Below, one piece after another: positions 3,053 to 29,284 of a DNA stretch of 64,000 nucleotides. Source of the DNA: an uncultured bacterium (GTDB lineage: Bacteria; Patescibacteriota; Minisyncoccia; UBA6257; 2-01-FULL-56-20). The position numbers and the translations under genes are program-made. Under the pieces are notes generated by a model. It was not told where the DNA came from. It did not search any database and saw nothing but the letters and a program-made list of their open reading frames with translations. Positions within the stretch are counted from its first letter, which is position 1, and every line of letters begins with the position of its first letter. The stretch covers positions 378,902 to 442,901 of the forward strand of contig CAVRXN010000002.1 in NCBI GenBank assembly GCA_963725235.1, in the 5' to 3' direction.

Positions 3053-4372
3053 ATGAATCCTCCTCGTAGCGGCTTTCAAGGACTCGGCATCTCGCCGAGT
3101 GTTTTAACATTACTCGAGAAGCTGGAATTTAAAACACCGACGCCAATCCAGGAGCAATCGATCCCGCAAGCGATCGAAGGCAAGGATGTTATCGGTGTCG
3201 CGCAGACAGGAACCGGAAAAACTTTGGCGTTTGGCATCCCGTTGATCCAGGCATTATTAAAAAATCCTCGCGCCCGCGCTCTCGTTTTGCTGCCGACACG
3301 CGACCTCGCGCTCCAGGTTGAAGAGTCACTCCGAAAAATCGGCACACCGCTCGGGCTAAAATCCGTCATTATCGTTGGTGGTGACTCGATGAACCGGCAA
3401 GTTCGCGAACTCGCTCGTCGCCCACAAATTTTGATCGCAACGCCGGGCCGCATGATCGACCACTTACAACAGAAGACAATCAATTTATCCGATGTTCGCG
3501 TTGTCGTTCTCGATGAAGCCGACCGGATGCTTGATATGGGTTTTGCACCGCAGCTGAAACGGATTTTGCCGCTCCTGCCAACGGAGCGCCAGACAATGTT
3601 GTTTTCGGCGACGATGCCGGAGAGCATCATCGGCATGGCTCGAGCGTATATGAAGTTACCCGTTCGTGTCGAGGTAGCAAGGCCGGGGACTGCGGCGAAA
3701 GATGTTACGCAGGAATTATTTATCGTCGCCCAGCCCGAGAAGCCGCGCTTGCTTGAAAAAGTTTTGCAGGAATATCGCGGATCGGTTTTGGTGTTCGCGC
3801 GGACAAAATTCTCAGCGAAACGGATCGCCGCACATCTCCGTGCGCTCGGTCATCAGTCAGTCGAATTCCATTCCAACCGTTCTTTAAGCCAACGCAAGGA
3901 AGCACTCGACGGTTTCAAAAACGGCCGCTATCGCGTTCTCGTCGCAACCGACATCGCTGCCCGCGGCATCGACGTCAAAAATATCGAACTCGTCATCAAC
4001 TACGATCTGCCAACCGTCGCCGAGGATTACGTCCATCGCATCGGCCGCACCGGCCGTGCCGGTGGTTCTGGCCACGCGATCTCCTTCGCGCGTCCCGATG
4101 AGCGCCGTGACGTCCAGGCAATCGAGCGCCTGATGCGCTCTACATTATCAGTTTCACGTTTGCCGGAATTGCCGCCGATGCGACCGGGTGTCGTCGCGGC
4201 GCCGTTAGATCGACCTGACAGACCGATGCATCGCGGGGGTGGCTCCGGCGGATATCGAGGCGGTTCAGGTGGCGGCTCACGAGGGCCAAGTCGCGGGCCG
4301 GGTGGACCAAGTCGTTTCCAGCGTGGCGGCCCCAGCAGAGGACCGAGGCCAGAACGGAGAGGGAGGTATTAA
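3053..4372 (+). CDS. DEAD-box ATP-dependent RNA helicase with a Gly/Arg-rich (RGG-like) C-terminal tail
   Basis: Motifs AQTGTGKT, DEAD, SAT and HRIGRTGRAG are present. The tail reads GGGSGGYRGGSGGGSRGPSRGPGGPSRFQRGGPSRGPRPERRGRY. Confidence 0.95.
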   Translation: MNPPRSGFQGLGISPSVLTLLEKLEFKTPTPIQEQSIPQAIEGKDVIGVAQTGTGKTLAFGIPLIQALLKNPRARALVLLPTRDLALQVEESLRKIGTPLGLKSVIIVGGDSMNRQVRELARRPQILIATPGRMIDHLQQKTINLSDVRVVVLDEADRMLDMGFAPQLKRILPLLPTERQTMLFSATMPESIIGMARAYMKLPVRVEVARPGTAAKDVTQELFIVAQPEKPRLLEKVLQEYRGSVLVFARTKFSAKRIAAHLRALGHQSVEFHSNRSLSQRKEALDGFKNGRYRVLVATDIAARGIDVKNIELVINYDLPTVAEDYVHRIGRTGRAGGSGHAISFARPDERRDVQAIERLMRSTLSVSRLPELPPMRPGVVAAPLDRPDRPMHRGGGSGGYRGGSGGGSRGPSRGPGGPSRFQRGGPSRGPRPERRGRY

Positions 4373-4390: not shown

Positions 4391-4413
4391 GGATATCACA
4401 AATTGTGATATCC
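4391..4413. repeat. Perfect palindrome GGATATCACA-aat-TGTGATATCC
   Basis: 10-nt arms with a 3-nt centre, 19 nt after the helicase stop. No T-tract follows. Confidence 0.8.
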
Positions 4414-4427
4414 AAATTGTTACCGAT

Positions 4428-4452
4428 CCAAGGTCACAGAATGTGACCTTGG
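4428..4452. repeat. Perfect palindrome CCAAGGTCACA-gaa-TGTGACCTTGG
   Basis: 11-nt arms with a 3-nt centre and the same TCACA-N3-TGTGA core as 4391-4413. It ends 5 nt before a -35 box. Confidence 0.8.
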
Positions 4453-6847: not shown

Positions 6848-6981
6848 ATGTGTAGTTGGCCGGCACCGCGCCGGCATTATAAGAAAAAGCCCTTTCCGGG
6901 CGAGTTCAAGGATAGTTTAACAGGTTTTTAAGGATTTGGGTAGGGGAGAACAGGTTTAATAGATAGGTTATAATTAATTCC

Positions 6982-7260
6982 ATGGGGTACGTTACCACGT
7001 CGAATCCAACAATAAACCTTTTAGGCTTCCCAGTAGATCTTGGTAGTTTTCTGATAACCCTCGGCGTACTTATCCTTGTTTTTTTCTTAGTTCGAGAAAT
7101 TCTTTGCTGGTATTGGAAGGTTAATAAAATCGTAGAGCTTTTGGGAGACATCAAAGATAACACCTCGACTTCCAAGGCGCTTCTCCAAAGAATGATCACA
7201 GAACCTCAGGTGCCGGCGAAAACTTCGGAGGCGGCTCCCACTGATCAATCAAAAGTTTAG
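6982..7260 (+). CDS. Small membrane protein, hypothetical
   Basis: One clear hydrophobic helix (FLITLGVLILVFFLV). TATAAT (6969-6974) lies 7 nt upstream of the ATG. Confidence 0.45.
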   Translation: MGYVTTSNPTINLLGFPVDLGSFLITLGVLILVFFLVREILCWYWKVNKIVELLGDIKDNTSTSKALLQRMITEPQVPAKTSEAAPTDQSKV

Positions 7261-7458
7261 ATCAAAGGTTTTATGCCAAAAATTCAATCAAAAAAGATAA
7301 GAGCCGTCTTGCGACAGCTCCCGGTTTTACCCATGCTTTGACACTCAAGGATTTTAGAGCAACCTTTCGGATGGGACAGCTTTTCTGGTCTGTGAAGTCC
7401 CTTTACCTGTTTATTTTTCGTCGGACGCAGCAGGCACCGACTAAGAATCCGTGAAGTA

Positions 7459-7824
7459 CTATTTCTTGGATTCTACGGCTTGTCGAACCGTCTTGGCATC
7501 AAGACCGTACATCACCATGGTGGTTGCGATGAGCAAATGCAATGCATATGCGCCGCAACCATTACATTCGATGTGGCCATCTTGATCTAAGAAGAGAGGA
7601 CGACTGTTTTCCGTGTCACGGGCAACCAACTCATTGGCTACCGCAACAATGTCAGCAATGTTGAGGCCGCCGAAATTATCTTCGACGTAACGGACGCTTT
7701 TTTCAAAGCTCCGCATATCAACACCACAATCGAGACATCCTCCCAACTTCAATTCAGAGCCAAGCGATCGACCAAGGCCGAGTACTACCCAGTCTAAACC
7801 GGGCAAACCCTGTCTCGTCATCAT
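7459..7824 (-). CDS. Hypothetical protein
   Basis: 121-aa ORF in a low-GC stretch. No motif recognised. Confidence 0.45.
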   Translation of the reverse strand: MMTRQGLPGLDWVVLGLGRSLGSELKLGGCLDCGVDMRSFEKSVRYVEDNFGGLNIADIVAVANELVARDTENSRPLFLDQDGHIECNGCGAYALHLLIATTMVMYGLDAKTVRQAVESKK

Positions 7825-7893
7825 GCTGGATACAGGATAGCATGATATGTTTATTTTGTCAATATCAGTTTATGTAGGTTTTATGGGACTTAT

Positions 7894-7934
7894 TTATCCA
7901 CAACCTGTGGATATGTTGATTTTTCTGTGGATAA
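7894..7934. promoter_or_regulatory. Cluster of three DnaA-box-like 9-mers (two perfect TTATCCACA)
   Basis: TTATCCACA at 7894-7902 (+), TGTGGATAT at 7906-7914 (ATATCCACA on the minus strand) and TGTGGATAA at 7926-7934 (perfect on the minus strand). The first two form the palindrome TATCCACA-acc-TGTGGATA. Confidence 0.6.
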
Positions 7935-7943
7935 ATGTAGAAT
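7916..7943 (+). promoter_or_regulatory. Sigma70-type promoter TTGATT-N16-TAGAAT overlapping the third DnaA-like box
   Basis: Hexamers at 7916-7921 and 7938-7943. Confidence 0.4.
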
Positions 7944-7949
7944 ATAAAT

Positions 7950-8002
7950 GTAAGCTTTGGCTTACCCGATTTTGATCAAAACCCGCCTTTCGGCGGGTTT
8001 TT
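7950..8002 (+). ncRNA. Candidate ~50-nt small RNA (promoter to terminator, no ORF)
   Basis: Downstream of the TAGAAT box there is only ATG-TAA. A GTAAGC-tttg-GCTTAC hairpin is followed by the 7978-8002 terminator. Confidence 0.25.
7978..8002 (+). terminator. Rho-independent terminator
   Basis: AAACCCGCC-tttc-GGCGGGTTT followed by TTTTT. No plus-strand CDS lies upstream. Confidence 0.7.
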
Positions 8003-8056
8003 GATTTAGTTAAGTATTTGATTAGCAAGTATGGTTGATTATTGCCAATTTTTTGA

Positions 8057-8071
8057 TAAAATATCTGCATG
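8057..8071 (+). promoter_or_regulatory. -10 box abutting the start codon (TAAAAT-N6-ATG); possible -35 TTGATT at 8035-8040
   Basis: Hexamer at 8057-8062, ATG at 8069. Confidence 0.4.
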
Positions 8072-8686
8072 ACTCACGACGATATAAAATCTTTTCTTGA
8101 AGAATTTAGCCCAAAACGTGATCGAACTATCGTGATTGTTGATTATGGAAATGTGGAAAAATGGAAACATAGTTTGGGATGGCGCGTAGGAATAAAAGAA
8201 TTAGCTGAGCTTGTTAAGAAGTTTTCGATCGGAAAGCAGCCTCTTCGAAGATTTTATTATGGGGCGGATTATGGAAAAGATGAAAAATCTGGGCTACTTA
8301 TTCCATGGTCGAAGGCTATTTTGGAAATGGCAGCAATGAATCGATTTGAAGTTATTAAGAAAAGAGTTAAGTACATCCATAATCCTGACAATACTCAGGG
8401 ATTTGAAAAGAAATGTGACCTTGATGTGGAGATGATAGTAGATTTGATAAGAGAAAGAGATAATTATGACAACATTATCTTATTCTCCGGAGATGGGGAT
8501 TTGATGTGTGGCATAAAATATCTATGTGAGGAATATAAAAAGTCGTGTATGGTATTTGGGGCAAGAAATCATACTGGTCGGGAAATTTTTGATGCGCAGA
8601 CTGCTGGATATGTCGCTAACATTTTTTATGCGGAAGATTTCGAATATCGATTAAGTCGAGATAGGCGGATACTTCCACATCGTTGA
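8069..8686 (+). CDS. NYN-domain (LabA/DUF88-like, PIN-fold) putative ribonuclease
   Basis: IVDYGN near the N-terminus, DLDVEMIVD in the middle and LFSGDGDL later, which matches the acidic-residue pattern of NYN domains. Confidence 0.65.
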   Translation: MTHDDIKSFLEEFSPKRDRTIVIVDYGNVEKWKHSLGWRVGIKELAELVKKFSIGKQPLRRFYYGADYGKDEKSGLLIPWSKAILEMAAMNRFEVIKKRVKYIHNPDNTQGFEKKCDLDVEMIVDLIRERDNYDNIILFSGDGDLMCGIKYLCEEYKKSCMVFGARNHTGREIFDAQTAGYVANIFYAEDFEYRLSRDRRILPHR

Positions 8687-8697
8687 TTGTGAGGAAG

Positions 8698-9669
8698 TTA
8701 TTTTCTAATTGATTTCCCTTTAATCCCATTCAGCACCTTCTGCACTTTCTTGATGCTCTCGTCATCCGCGATCGAAATGGCCATGACTTTTGGGTTTAGT
8801 TTCTTCAAAACAGTCAATCGCTTTTTTAATTCTTTTTCATCTAACAAATCTGCCTTCGACAAAAATAAATACTCAGGTTTCTTCAACAGCATCTTATTAT
8901 ATAAACCGAGCTCGCGGCGGATGGTTGTGTAGTCGGCGGCAGGCGACGCAGATTCGGCTGAAACGAAATGAAACAAAACGCCGGTACGTTCGATGTGCCT
9001 CAAAAACTTTATACCCAAACCGCGGCCGGTAGACGAGCCCTCAATCAGGCCAGGGATATCGGCGAGCACCAACTCATAGTAGACGCCGAGGTTTGGCTCC
9101 AATGTCGTGAAGGGGTAATTGGCGACTTTTGCGCTCGCGCGGGTCAGCGTGTTTAACATGCTCGACTTGCCGGCGTTCGGGAGGCCGACGAAGCCGACGT
9201 CGGCGATGAATTTCAGTTCGAGGCGCAGGTCATAGCTTTCGCCGGGGCGTCCGGCGTCGGACTCGCGCGGCGAGGTGTTGTGTGCGGACTTGAATTGCAG
9301 GTTGCCACGGCCGCCGATGCCGCCCTTCGCGAGCGCGATCTGAACGCCGGCCGCGACGATTTCGCTGTCTTCGCCCGTCGTCAGGTTATGTATGATCGTT
9401 CCGACCGGCAGTTTCAAAACTAAATCGGCACCGACGTGGCCATCGCGGAACTGGTCGCGCCCGTCGCGCCCATTCTCAGCGGCGAACTCTTTTTTGTAGC
9501 GGAATTGTCCCAAAGCAGAAAGATCCGAAACGCCGACAGCGAAAACGCTGCCGCCTTTGCCGCCGCTTCCGCCAGCAGGACCGAGCGACATCATGTTCTT
9601 ATTAAACGCCACCTTGCCAGCACCACCGTGGCCACCGCTGACTTTGATTGAGACCTCGTCGATTAGCAT
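8698..9669 (-). CDS. obg: GTPase Obg/CgtA
   Basis: Gly-rich Obg fold (GGHGGAG, GGSGGKGG, GGIGGRGN) followed by G-domain motifs GLPNAGKS, DIPG and SKAD. Confidence 0.95.
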   Translation of the reverse strand: MLIDEVSIKVSGGHGGAGKVAFNKNMMSLGPAGGSGGKGGSVFAVGVSDLSALGQFRYKKEFAAENGRDGRDQFRDGHVGADLVLKLPVGTIIHNLTTGEDSEIVAAGVQIALAKGGIGGRGNLQFKSAHNTSPRESDAGRPGESYDLRLELKFIADVGFVGLPNAGKSSMLNTLTRASAKVANYPFTTLEPNLGVYYELVLADIPGLIEGSSTGRGLGIKFLRHIERTGVLFHFVSAESASPAADYTTIRRELGLYNKMLLKKPEYLFLSKADLLDEKELKKRLTVLKKLNPKVMAISIADDESIKKVQKVLNGIKGKSIRK

Positions 9670-26745: not shown

Positions 26746-27844
26746 ATGTTTCTTTAGTTTGTTAGTGTTAGTCATTCGAACCCCTCGATCGAGGGTTTGA
26801 ATGCAAATTCAAATTCTTTTCAGAGGATTTGATCCTGGTCCAGGATGAACGCTGGCGGTGTGGATAAGGCATGCAAGTCGAGCGCCCCGCAAGGGGAGCG
26901 GCGAACGAGTTAGTAACACCCTGGTACGTACCTCGAAGTCGGGCATAGCTCGCCGAAAGGCGGGGTAATTCCCGATAGTCCCGCAAGGGTAAAGGTCGCA
27001 AGCCGCTTTGAGATCGGCCTAGGTCCGATCAGCTAGTTGGTAAGGTAACGGCTTACCAAGGCTATGACCGGTAGGGGAGGTGAGAGCCTGACCCCCACCG
27101 ACGAGACTGAGACACGGCTCGTACTCCTACGGGTGGCAGCAGTCGAGAATATTCGACAATGGGCGAAAGCCTGATCGAGCGACACCGCGTGCAGGATGAA
27201 GGCCTTCGGGTCGTAAACTGCGGTAGTATGAGTAACAATGCAAATGACGTGCCATATGGAAAGAGGTGGGTAACTACGTGCCAGCACCAGCGGTAATACG
27301 TAGACCTCAAGCGTTATCCGGATTTATTGGGCGTAAAGAGCATGTAGGAGGTTTTGCGCGTCTTTTGTTAAAGCCCACGGCCTAACCGTGGAACTGCAAG
27401 AGAAACGGCAGAACTAGAGGGGGTTAGAGGTGCATGGAACTCACGGTGTAGGGGTGAAATCCGTTGATATCGTGGGGAACACCAAAGGCGAAGGCAGTGC
27501 ACTGGGACCTTCCTGACTCTGAGATGCGAAAGCGTGGGGAGCAAAAAGGATTAGATACCCTTGTAGTCCACGCCCTAAACGATGTCTGTTTGCTGTTTCG
27601 AGTATCGACCCTCGGAGTGGCGTAGCTAACGCGTTAAACAGACCGCCTGGGAAGTACGGTCGCAAGGTTAAAACTCAAAGGAATAGACGGGGACTCGCAC
27701 AAGCGGTGGAACATGTGGTTTAATTCGATAGTAAGCGAGGAACCTTACCAGGGCTTGAAATGTACGTTGACGGGTCGATGGAAACGTTGCCCTTCTCACA
27801 AGGACAGTGTACGCAGGTGCTGCATGGTTGTCGTCAGCTCGTGC

Positions 27845-28739
27845 TTTGAACAACTTCGGAGCCTTCAGGAGTAATCTTGAAGTAAAATCTGGCTCATAAC
27901 GGGGGAACCGAGATATAATAAGTATTATGATTGGCAATCCCGTGGGAAGTTTGGAAGTTCCAACAATGCTTCGTGCAAGGAAAAACTTGAAGCTCGCGAT
28001 CAGCGAGCGGCAAAGGAATATTTTGATTGGTTGTGTATTGGGAGATGCATATATTTCTCCGAAAGGAAAAATCCGCATCGAACAATCTACAAAGCAATCT
28101 AAATATCTTTGGTGGAAATACGAAGAATTACATTCTTTAGCATATCCATCATTGCCGAGAGAAATTAAACACATTCACAAACCTACAGATCGAATTTATT
28201 CGTCGGAATTTTTTGATTTACGACAATATTTTCGACCATGGCGATCAATATTTTATCAAGGGAAAAAGATTTTTCCTGAAATGTTATTGATTGATTCGCT
28301 TTCATTAGCGGTATGGTATATGGATGATGGTTGCTGGACCGGTAAAAAATCGGTTATAGCAATAGAAGGATTTGATGATGAAAGCATCGAGAGAATCCAA
28401 CAAATGTTTCTAAATCATCTTGAAATAGAGACAATCGTTGGAAAGAATCGAAAACTTATCATCAGAAAAACCTCCCATGAATTATTTTATGGATTAATTT
28501 CTCCTTACATTATTCCTAGCATGCAGTATAAACTTCCAAACCCCGTAACGACTTATCCGAAAGGATGGAATGAGATTTTTGAATCTCATTAAAACGCCAG
28601 CTCCAGTGTAATGAAAATTACAGCTGGATGAAGGTATAGTCTGTGTTCTGTGAAACTTCGTTTCACGGATTGGTTCGCTCATCGAAAATGAAAATAAATT
28701 TTCATTTTCGCTTCGCTGCCAATCCTAAGAAATTTAGAA
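27845..28739 (+). mobile_element. Intervening sequence (intron-like) in 16S near E. coli position ~1075, encoding a homing endonuclease
   Basis: 16S collinearity breaks after CAGCTCGTGC and resumes at GGAAGTGTTCCCTTAAGTGGGGTAACGAGCGCAACCC. The insert is AT-rich. Boundaries are approximate (plus or minus 5 nt). Confidence 0.8.
27927..28592 (+). CDS. LAGLIDADG homing endonuclease (two-motif, monomeric type)
   Basis: ILIGCVLGDAYI and LAVWYMDDGCW motifs, located inside the 16S insertion. Confidence 0.85.
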   Translation: MIGNPVGSLEVPTMLRARKNLKLAISERQRNILIGCVLGDAYISPKGKIRIEQSTKQSKYLWWKYEELHSLAYPSLPREIKHIHKPTDRIYSSEFFDLRQYFRPWRSIFYQGKKIFPEMLLIDSLSLAVWYMDDGCWTGKKSVIAIEGFDDESIERIQQMFLNHLEIETIVGKNRKLIIRKTSHELFYGLISPYIIPSMQYKLPNPVTTYPKGWNEIFESH

Positions 28740-29284
28740 CGGAAGTGTTCCCTTAAGTGGGGTAACGAGCGCAACCCCTATTACGCGTTACAAGTGTCGC
28801 GTGAAACTGCCCCCGCTTTTGTCCGAGAGTGAATTCGACGATTGAATTCATAAACTCGCGGCCAGAAGCGGGGGAGGAAGGAGGGGATGACGTCAAATCA
28901 GCATGGCCCTTTGATGCCCTGGGCTACACACGTGTTACAATGGCGGTGACAATGGGTTGCCAACCCGCAAGGGGGAGCTAATCCCATCAAACATCGCCCC
29001 AGTTCGGATTGGGGGCTGCAACCTGCCCCCATGAAGCCGGAATCGCTAGTAATCGCAGATCAGCCACGCTGCGGTGAATACGTTCTCGAGTCCTGTACTC
29101 ACTGCCCGTCAACTCAAGGGAGCCGGTAATGGGCAAAATCTCTTTTCGGGATTAGTTCAAGATCGGTGACATGGAGTAAGTCGTAACAAGGCACCGGTAG
29201 CGGAAGCTGTCGCGTGGATCAATTAAACTACTACATCTAAGCAATGTAGTGGTGTCGCCAGCCAGACCAGTAGGGTCCGCTGAG

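Follow-up and report, generated by a model that had tools for sequence, protein, structure and literature searches.

The question raised by this locus is why three sites that resemble DnaA boxes should lie within 41 bp around a promoter that precedes no open reading frame (ORF). The locus is found at about 7.9 kb in a 64-kb stretch of DNA (the window, by which we mean the whole stretch analyzed), which is bacterial, of the Candidate Phyla Radiation (CPR, or Patescibacteria) type, and encodes GreA and Obg among its proteins. The answer favored by sequence comparison, to which we would assign a probability of roughly 0.6, is that the boxes belong to a promoter gated by DnaA, which would drive a conserved CPR small RNA with a predicted RNase of the NYN family as its partner. 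The original prediction had described three boxes, a TTGATT-N16-TAGAAT promoter with the third box in its spacer, and downstream of it an ATG-TAA, a small hairpin and a strong terminator without an ORF, and all of these elements were present where it had placed them:

7894..7902, + strand: DnaA-box-like site 1, TTATCCACA, 9 of 9 positions matching, at -56..-48 from the probable transcription start
7906..7914, - strand: DnaA-box-like site 2, ATATCCACA, 8 of 9 positions matching, reading TGTGGATAT on the + strand, at -44..-36
7926..7934, - strand: DnaA-box-like site 3, TTATCCACA, 9 of 9 positions matching, reading TGTGGATAA on the + strand, at -24..-16 in the promoter spacer
7916..7943, + strand: sigma-70-type promoter, TTGATT (7916-7921), 16-nt spacer, TAGAAT (7938-7943)
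7948-7953, + strand: ATG-TAA, a start and stop codon directly downstream of the promoter
7950-7965, + strand: 5' hairpin GTAAGC-TTTG-GCTTAC, 6 bp
7966-7973, + strand: conserved linker CCGAUUUU (CCNAUUUU in the RNA), 8-9 nt, single-stranded
7974-8004, + strand: 3' hairpin and terminator, GAUCAAAA-CCCGCC-UUUC-GGCGGG-UUUUUGAU
7950..8008, + strand: small RNA gene, ~54-58 nt, covariance model score 77.9 bits, E = 3e-13

We infer that the RNA begins at G7950, as the distance from the end of the -10 hexamer to the 5' G of GTAAG is 6-7 nt in all aligned homologues, the window included, and that it ends at the terminator (10 pairs at 7978-8001, followed by TTTTTGATTT), which would give a length of ~54-58 nt. 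The folding energy of the 57-nt RNA is -23.9 kcal/mol (z = -5.0), a value that none of 200 shuffled sequences reached. The ATG-TAA was considered as a mini-ORF and rejected, being present in only some homologues and not conserved; the ORFs at 7847-7975 and 7894-8070 belong to the intergenic unit only and do not fit the layout of the other loci.

The conservation of this unit was evaluated in genomes and metagenomes. An NYN-based scan of one genome per species yielded 29 loci, of which 28 were testable, and the first clue was that TTATCCACA recurs across these loci some 720 nt downstream of the NYN start. On the strand opposite NYN, the unit has the order box, a few nt, TTGACA-like -35, spacer of ~17 nt, -10 and 6-7 nt, followed by the transcribed elements GTAAGC-loop-GCTTAC, CC-N-ATTTTGATC-R-AAA, CCGCC-loop-GGCGG and TTTTTGATTT. 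A covariance model built from 23 copies found a single copy directly 3' of NYN in 28/28 testable genome loci, with E values from 1.6e-14 to 3.9e-07. The metagenomes were scanned with a pattern taken from the transcribed sequence only, and 80 of the 95 matching stretches were analyzed: 56 had a convergent NYN gene with its stop codon at the 3' end of the RNA, 9 were too short to test, about 11 had the RNA without NYN in the available DNA, and 2 were chance matches inside ORFs. Therefore, in view of the ~11 loci with the RNA and without NYN, the RNA is a unit of its own. The pattern had no match in viral contigs.

The structure of the RNA was found to covary. In an unfitted MAFFT alignment, 9/15 predicted pairs had compensatory changes, and the R after GAUC paired with a Y in the U-run (A-U 10, G-C 9, G-U 4). 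In an alignment of 86 copies, which was fitted to the model and included metagenome copies chosen by a pattern that prescribes part of helix 1, 97.9% of cells paired and compensatory double changes were present in 13/15 pairs; these pairing values were reached by 0/500 shuffles, and slid controls paired in 33-64% of cells. The strand comparison is independent of both the fitting and the selection of copies, because a G-U pair is valid only on the promoter-bearing strand: G-U outnumbered A-C by 95 to 5 in the fitted alignment and by 29 to 5 in the unfitted one. Therefore, selection acts on the promoter-bearing strand. The unit has its own promoter at a fixed distance, a G+C-rich hairpin with a U-run, a covarying structure on the transcribed strand and no conserved ORF, and these comparisons indicate that the unit 7916-8008 is a real gene of a ~55-nt small RNA, conserved across the Patescibacteria.

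No match to the small RNA was obtained in Rfam 15 at the gathering threshold. Known families (rnk leader, STnc370 and others) were considered and rejected, as the relaxed matches reached at most 31 bits and ran through the terminator only. A literature search found no description of a CPR small RNA, an NYN-linked RNA or a DnaA-regulated small RNA that matches the unit. To the extent covered by Rfam 15 and the searchable literature, neither the RNA family nor its link to NYN has been described. It was also observed that the invariant AUUUUGAUC of the RNA (7966-7981) resembles the universal 5' end of 16S rRNA, AGAGUUUGAUC (GGAUUUGAUCC at 26827-26837 of the window); the likeness is a shared 7-mer only and may be due to chance.

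We turn to the boxes. All three lie within 41 bp; boxes 1 and 2 form an inverted pair 3 bp apart, and box 2 is only 1 nt from the -35 hexamer. The whole window contains 20 boxes at ≤1 mismatch, compared to 10.4 +/- 3.3 in shuffled sequences, and the remaining perfect copies (at 1360, 22233 and 26859) are all in coding or rRNA sequence. By our own arithmetic, three sites in 41 bp would arise by chance roughly 1e-3 to 1e-4 times per whole window. A chance origin of the cluster is unlikely, and the decisive argument is the recurrence of the predicted site at orthologous promoters. In a set of 78 non-redundant promoters (<80% identical over -80..-1), a box at ≤1 mismatch was found in the region -100..-1 of 36, and the box was perfect in 25 of those. 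The number of perfect boxes was 26, relative to 0.23 expected from the rest of the same loci (Poisson, 5e-44).

The box starts cluster at -45..-56, just upstream of the -35 hexamer, with 27 boxes reading TGTGGATAA towards the promoter and 12 reading TTATCCACA. The commonest arrangement is TGTGGATAA 1-9 nt upstream of -35 (loci L016, L020, L028, L029, L036, L046 and others), and box 2 of the window has this commonest position and orientation. Forward-oriented boxes placed like box 1 of the window were found at -50..-61 in other lineages, and a spacer box like box 3 in one other lineage only (L061, at -29). The distribution is bimodal: 32/80 promoters had a box at ≤1 mismatch in -62..-35, and the remainder were indistinguishable from shuffled sequences, with no excess at 2 mismatches and so no degenerate boxes in the box-less lineages. 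Therefore, the box is a discrete feature that is either present or absent. In the closest relative of the window (L032, NYN 91% identical), all three boxes are in place with 1-2 mismatches each, reading TTATCCAtA (box 1), TGTGGgTAc (box 2) and TGTGGATgA (box 3), and by our count the box sites have diverged less than the spacer around them. The conservation of boxes and terminator that the original prediction proposed to check was borne out in this way, the boxes being kept in L032 and recurrent elsewhere and the terminator being part of the conserved RNA; the link to NYN and the conservation across the CPR were not seen in that interpretation, which is supported in part.

A one-mismatch box, TTTTCCACA, is also present inside the NYN gene at 8152-8160 (- strand) of the window, and at +83 from the NYN start in L010, L015, L018 and L031. 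It was rejected as a regulatory site: it encodes the conserved N-V-E-K-W motif and is therefore a coding by-product.

It appears most likely that the three TTATCCACA-type sites are DnaA binding sites that gate the small RNA promoter. The 9-mer is the universal DnaA box, its flanks (cTGTGGATAAc) match boxes bound by DnaA in E. coli (Escherichia coli) chromatin immunoprecipitation (ChIP), and it occurs above chance frequency at a conserved orthologous promoter. Among the genes of the E. coli DnaA regulon are some for repair and RNA metabolism (for example uvrB, polA and rne), and E. coli DnaA in vivo prefers direct double boxes spaced 2-3 bp. A dnaN-dnaA-rpmH arrangement was found at 384-3500 of L023, a Saccharibacteria metagenome-assembled genome (MAG) that alone among the 29 genome loci has dnaA no more than 10 kb from NYN, and its dnaA-rpmH spacer holds three boxes, TTTTCCACA, TTATGCACA and TGTGGATAA. 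The DnaA encoded there keeps equivalents of R399, P423, D433, H434, T435 and H439, which we take to be the base-contacting residues of structure 1J1V.

The same motif was found at other promoters. Perfect TTATCCACA or TGTGGATAA copies lie just upstream of the -35 of lexA in 3/3 testable CPR loci:

L065, ~4140-4204: lexA promoter with box
L111, ~290-360: lexA promoter with box
L113, 2226-2350: lexA promoter with box

The repeats near the spacer of these promoters are lineage-specific (TTTCGGT direct repeats in L111 and L113, CCCGACC-ATTT-GGTCGGG in L065); they look like candidate LexA operators, with the 9-mer as the invariant element. In L113, the lexA and small RNA promoters share the same ~35-nt block of box plus repeat. 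In L020, the motif also immediately precedes the -35 hexamer of a UvrD-like helicase gene. A DUF3800-V RNA (RF02964, 70 bits) is encoded at 8077-8172 (- strand) of L020, with a box TGTGGATAA at 8210-8218 upstream of its -35, and is a second non-coding RNA gene with the motif. Some NYN promoters carry it as well: in L007 (587), and in L012 and L021 (at -74 from the NYN start), a box (TTATCCACA or TTATGCACA) lies 8-9 nt upstream of -35.

One alternative, which we regard as unlikely, is that the small RNA is real and that the 9-mer is bound by some other CPR factor (perhaps a regulator that responds to replication or damage); the match of the 9-mer to the DnaA box would then be coincidental. The small set of promoters just described (small RNA, lexA 3/3, UvrD-like helicase, DUF3800-V and some NYN) could suit any dedicated factor, and the sites are mostly single, in contrast to the double boxes of E. 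coli DnaA, whose binding here is a prediction. However, all nine positions equal the DnaA consensus in 25 promoters, the flanks do so too, and the motif is invariant across lineages whose operators differ, as at lexA (TTTCGGT versus CCCGACC). Moreover, it clusters in the rpmH-dnaA spacer of L023, the DnaA of which presumably retains the base-reading residues, and a lone asymmetric site that can point either way is compatible with a protein that reads DNA as a monomer, for example domain IV of DnaA.

That last property bears also on the suggestion in the original prediction that an unrelated palindrome-binding regulator might use these sites. No inverted repeat was found at the orthologous sites; other lineages have a single asymmetric 9-mer in either orientation (27 versus 12) with no inverted partner, which argues against a palindrome-binding dimer. 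The two palindromes that the prediction had likened to the boxes do exist:

4391-4413: palindrome 1, GGATATCACA-AAT-TGTGATATCC, perfect
4428-4452: palindrome 2, CCAAGGTCACA-GAA-TGTGACCTTGG, perfect

They were rejected as sites of the same regulator: the half-sites GGATATCACA and CCAAGGTCACA differ from the box and share with it only CACA. They lie directly after the stop codon of a DEAD-box helicase gene (4372) and within the first 21 codons of a called response-regulator ORF, in which the receiver domain begins only at residue 48. The palindromes may be RNA hairpins or terminators, and the start of the response-regulator ORF may be miscalled.

Several observations weigh against control of the small RNA by DnaA. 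The boxes of L032 are partly degenerate, box 1 lacking C8 of the CACA core, and the promoter is box-less in 55-60% of lineages, so that the RNA does not depend on box-mediated control. The spacing between box and -35 forms a continuous range of 1-9 nt and both orientations occur, which is unusual for an activator bound to one face of the helix. The compared promoters, despite being <80% identical, are not phylogenetically independent. Single sites predominate, and boxes 1 and 2 of the window form an inverted pair, unlike the direct double boxes of E. coli. The dnaA gene of the organism lies outside the 64-kb window, and its product as the binder is a prediction. Finally, the complement of the RNA linker (seed) is not enriched in the window, with 19 matches relative to 13.5 expected.

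With these reservations, the proposal of a DnaA-gated promoter can be put as a mechanism. A sigma-70-type promoter of the strong, constitutive kind would start transcription at G7950 and yield a short RNA made up of a protective 5' hairpin, an exposed 8-9-nt linker and a long 3' hairpin that would serve as intrinsic terminator. DnaA bound at the -35-proximal site would modulate initiation, and in the window the flanking site and the spacer site would add to this effect; a protein bound to box 3 in the spacer should block RNA polymerase, that is, repress. An activator-dependent promoter was considered and rejected, as promoters with a box are as near consensus as those without (5.2 versus 5.5 matches at -35 and 4.9 versus 4.6 at -10). 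Given these near-consensus promoters and the perfect spacer box of the window, DnaA would act mainly as a repressor or modulator at the RNA promoter, and the output of RNA would follow the level or nucleotide state of DnaA, i.e., the replication status of the cell. The conserved partnership of RNA and NYN suggests a role with or on the enzyme, for which the RNA could be a cofactor, a decoy or substrate mimic, an antisense partner or an antidote. More speculatively, the RNA might imitate a pre-rRNA substrate of NYN or compete with it. The original prediction had offered a DnaA-controlled small RNA as one of its readings, and this is the one that fits the comparative evidence of a conserved, structured RNA with a recurrent box, the binding of DnaA being predicted.

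The partner gene and its promoter lie downstream of the RNA gene:

8069..8686, + strand: predicted NYN (LabA/DUF88-like) RNase gene, Pfam NYN, E = 1.4e-11
8035..8062, + strand: own promoter of the NYN gene, TTGATT, 16-nt spacer, TAAAAT, ending 6 nt before the ATG

The position of this promoter implies that the NYN mRNA would be leaderless or nearly so. The 205-aa protein is 60-74% identical across CPR lineages, and residues D25, N28, D117, D119, D142 and D144 are invariant in 31 sequences, so the predicted RNase is apparently catalytically intact. A search of PDB sequences with NYN gave only a weak match, to the uncharacterized 2qip. In the usual layout, the RNA gene is convergent with NYN and one bidirectional terminator is common to both. 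In the window, NYN is inverted relative to this layout, which places the RNA gene upstream in tandem, and the same arrangement was found only in L032. The guanine-plus-cytosine (GC) content of NYN is 0.37, compared to 0.50 for the window; a GC content lower than that of the flanks is seen for NYN in every lineage, and the difference is greatest here.

A broader picture can be drawn, which we consider possible but doubtful: a superphylum-wide ribonucleoprotein or regulatory pair, made up of a ~55-nt RNA and a near-invariant NYN protein, would belong to a replication-stress regulon that includes RNA cleavage and has DnaA as its master regulator, with DnaA boxes common to the small RNA, lexA and the UvrD-like helicase gene.

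The locus has the following setting in the window, in which the site is neighbored by an orphan gene, NYN, Obg and ABC-F:

7459-7824, - strand: orphan gene encoding 121 aa, divergent from the small RNA
7834..7862, - strand: divergent promoter of the 121-aa gene, TTGACA, 17-nt spacer, TATCCT
between 7459-7824 (-) and 8069-8686 (+): intergenic gap of 244 bp between the 121-aa gene and the NYN gene
6951..8712, no strand assigned: strain-variable island with small orphan ORFs, the box cluster, the small RNA and NYN

The nearest homologues of the local proteins are from Patescibacteria MAGs throughout. The 121-aa gene had no homologue other than itself, and Pfam, NCBIfam and PADLOC were also blank for it. 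Its TATCCT lies 9 nt before the ATG, similar to the near-leaderless arrangement of NYN, and box 1 lies ~32 nt upstream of the -35 of this divergent promoter. In the two relatives L131 and L132, the Obg proteins are 95-96% and the ABC-F proteins 91-94% identical to those of the window (amino acids), and the DNA can be aligned only up to window position 6950 and then from 8713 on. Neither NYN nor the small RNA was found within 13 kb of the locus in L131 or L132. Therefore, on the evidence of this replacement in close relatives, the 1.76-kb segment 6951-8712 with its orphan genes, boxes, RNA and NYN is a strain-variable island. The interval between ABC-F and Obg is a replacement hotspot, as L131 (6964-8655) and L132 (6964-8612) hold unrelated small ORFs there.

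This island raises a second alternative, compatible with control by DnaA, in which NYN and the RNA would form a mobile toxin-antitoxin- or defense-like module, the RNase being the toxin and the RNA its antidote; the boxes would then tie synthesis of the antidote to replication or damage status, as the SOS response does for E. coli type I systems. We consider it improbable. Its attraction lies in the absence of the 1.76-kb island from relatives with 95-96% identical Obg, in the GC content of NYN (0.13 below the window mean), in a weak match of NYN to the PADLOC NYN model, in the motif shared with lexA, and in the tandem order of promoter, RNA, terminator and nuclease gene, which here resembles type III loci. 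In addition, the RNA loci without an adjacent NYN adjoin restriction-modification, AbiEii-like and RhuM-like genes. This was seen at L038, L043/L055, L065, L088 and L092, and from our reading of the translations the genes beside the RNA encode an AbiEii-type nucleotidyltransferase, a RhuM/DinD-like protein, a type I restriction-modification HsdM, and a DNA methyltransferase with a MutH/Sau3AI-like endonuclease; this suggests that the 3' side of the RNA is an insertion hotspot for mobile or defense genes. However, across phylum-level lineages NYN keeps 60-74% identity, distant taxa do not share near-identical copies, and the GC content of NYN tracks that of the host, so that the gene looks old, vertically kept and strongly constrained. 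Each locus has one copy, the RNA consists of a single unit instead of an array of repeats, and the protein is a 205-aa enzyme and not a small membrane peptide.

It is very unlikely that the boxes mark a replication origin, or that they titrate or reactivate DnaA as a site of the datA, DARS or DnaA-box-cluster type, with the promoter overlapping them incidentally. Such a site would account for three boxes in 41 bp of an AT-rich gap, two of them inverted at 3-bp spacing, and the cumulative GC skew, which is level across 1-8 kb and beyond that mostly rises, makes an origin somewhere to the left conceivable. However, a tblastn search with B. subtilis (Bacillus subtilis) DnaA (a query in agreement with PDB 8btg over residues 351-445) found no dnaA in the 64-kb window, in agreement with the original prediction, and there was none among the ORFs scanned around the site. 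The GC skew, computed for the window only in 2-kb and 1-kb bins, the latter noisy, does not switch sign at 7.9 kb. In the one genome locus where the rpmH-dnaA-dnaN region is nearby (L023), it lies ~7 kb from the NYN/RNA locus. Linkage to dnaA, dnaN and rpmH, a skew switch and positional conservation were thus all absent, and with the segment missing from L131 and L132 the site is therefore not oriC; the earlier suggestion that it forms part of a replication origin is not supported. For titration or reactivation by the extra boxes of this lineage we found nothing in support, and orthologous promoters elsewhere carry one box or none. That there is no functional RNA, and that the unit is a bidirectional NYN terminator with fortuitous promoter-like sequence, is hardly credible: the 3' hairpin is common to the NYN terminator in the convergent layout and terminator stems covary anyway, but the 5' hairpin and linker are as conserved as the terminator, the 5' hairpin covaries, -35 and -10 keep a fixed distance in all lineages, the G-U/A-C asymmetry picks the promoter strand, and the unit keeps its sequence where NYN is non-convergent (window, L032) or missing.

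A feature of the window that is apart from this locus is its 16S gene (26822-29227), which at 2406 bp exceeds the 1478-position model and has an archaeal small-subunit rRNA model as top match. It contains an insert of ~930 nt with an ORF (27927-28592) for a LAGLIDADG_2 homing endonuclease (E = 1.3e-21). LAGLIDADG-type inserts are typical of CPR rRNA introns.

DnaA-regulated promoters are known in E. coli and B. subtilis (dnaA, nrdAB, mioC, polA, uvrB/DARS1 and rne; sda and ywlC). The unit described here resembles them in having TTATCCACA boxes at or beside -35 or inside the promoter, with cTGTGGATAAc flanks, and in belonging to a candidate regulon that mixes replication, repair and RNA-metabolism genes. 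It differs from the E. coli promoters in that the target is a small RNA gene, the sites are mostly single, the pair in the window is inverted, and the binding of CPR DnaA is predicted. The box clusters of datA, DARS1/2 and B. subtilis also lie away from the origin; however, those sites are defined functionally and act on DnaA (by titration or nucleotide exchange), whereas the boxes here are placed around promoter hexamers and are reduced to one box in other lineages. The DUF3800-V RNA (RF02964) is likewise a short, structured Patescibacteria RNA, the L020 copy of which has TGTGGATAA upstream of -35, but its sequence and structure are different.

The CcnA RNA of Caulobacter crescentus is a cell-cycle-regulated non-coding RNA encoded at the origin, presumably activated by CtrA, that pairs with the 5' untranslated regions of ctrA and gcrA (PMC8959179). 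In both cases a small RNA would be wired to replication or the cell cycle through a site for a master regulator in its promoter, which is a prediction for the RNA described here. Unlike CcnA, this RNA has no recognizable origin beside it, DnaA-type boxes and an RNase gene as partner, and the two have no sequence or structure in common.

A small RNA beside, or antisense to, the gene of a harmful or nucleolytic protein is also found in the SOS-controlled type I pairs tisB/istR-1 and symE/symR and in the type III system ToxIN. The likeness consists of an RNA next to the gene of a nucleolytic protein and of damage-linked promoter control, and the layout in the window resembles ToxIN. In contrast to type I and type III systems, neither an array of RNA repeats nor a small hydrophobic membrane toxin with an antisense RNA was found, and NYN is a deeply conserved 205-aa enzyme; unlike in type I systems, the overlap with the NYN mRNA consists of the shared terminator only and is lost in the window.

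The CPR make up a large share of bacterial diversity and have tiny genomes with few recognizable regulators, and to our knowledge almost nothing is known about RNA-based regulation in them. The small RNA family described here is new to Rfam 15 and spans phylum-level CPR lineages, including the culturable Saccharibacteria, as the Saccharibacteria-labelled MAG loci L023 and L026 carry it. It stands in a fixed partnership with a very strongly conserved NYN RNase, and it comes with a simple, testable promoter architecture and with a candidate CPR DnaA regulon that can be read from sequence, comprising the small RNA, lexA, the UvrD-like helicase gene and the dnaA region. If control by DnaA is true, there would be a link between replication initiation and RNA metabolism in bacteria without most of the classical stress regulators, and the function of NYN would become approachable by experiment.

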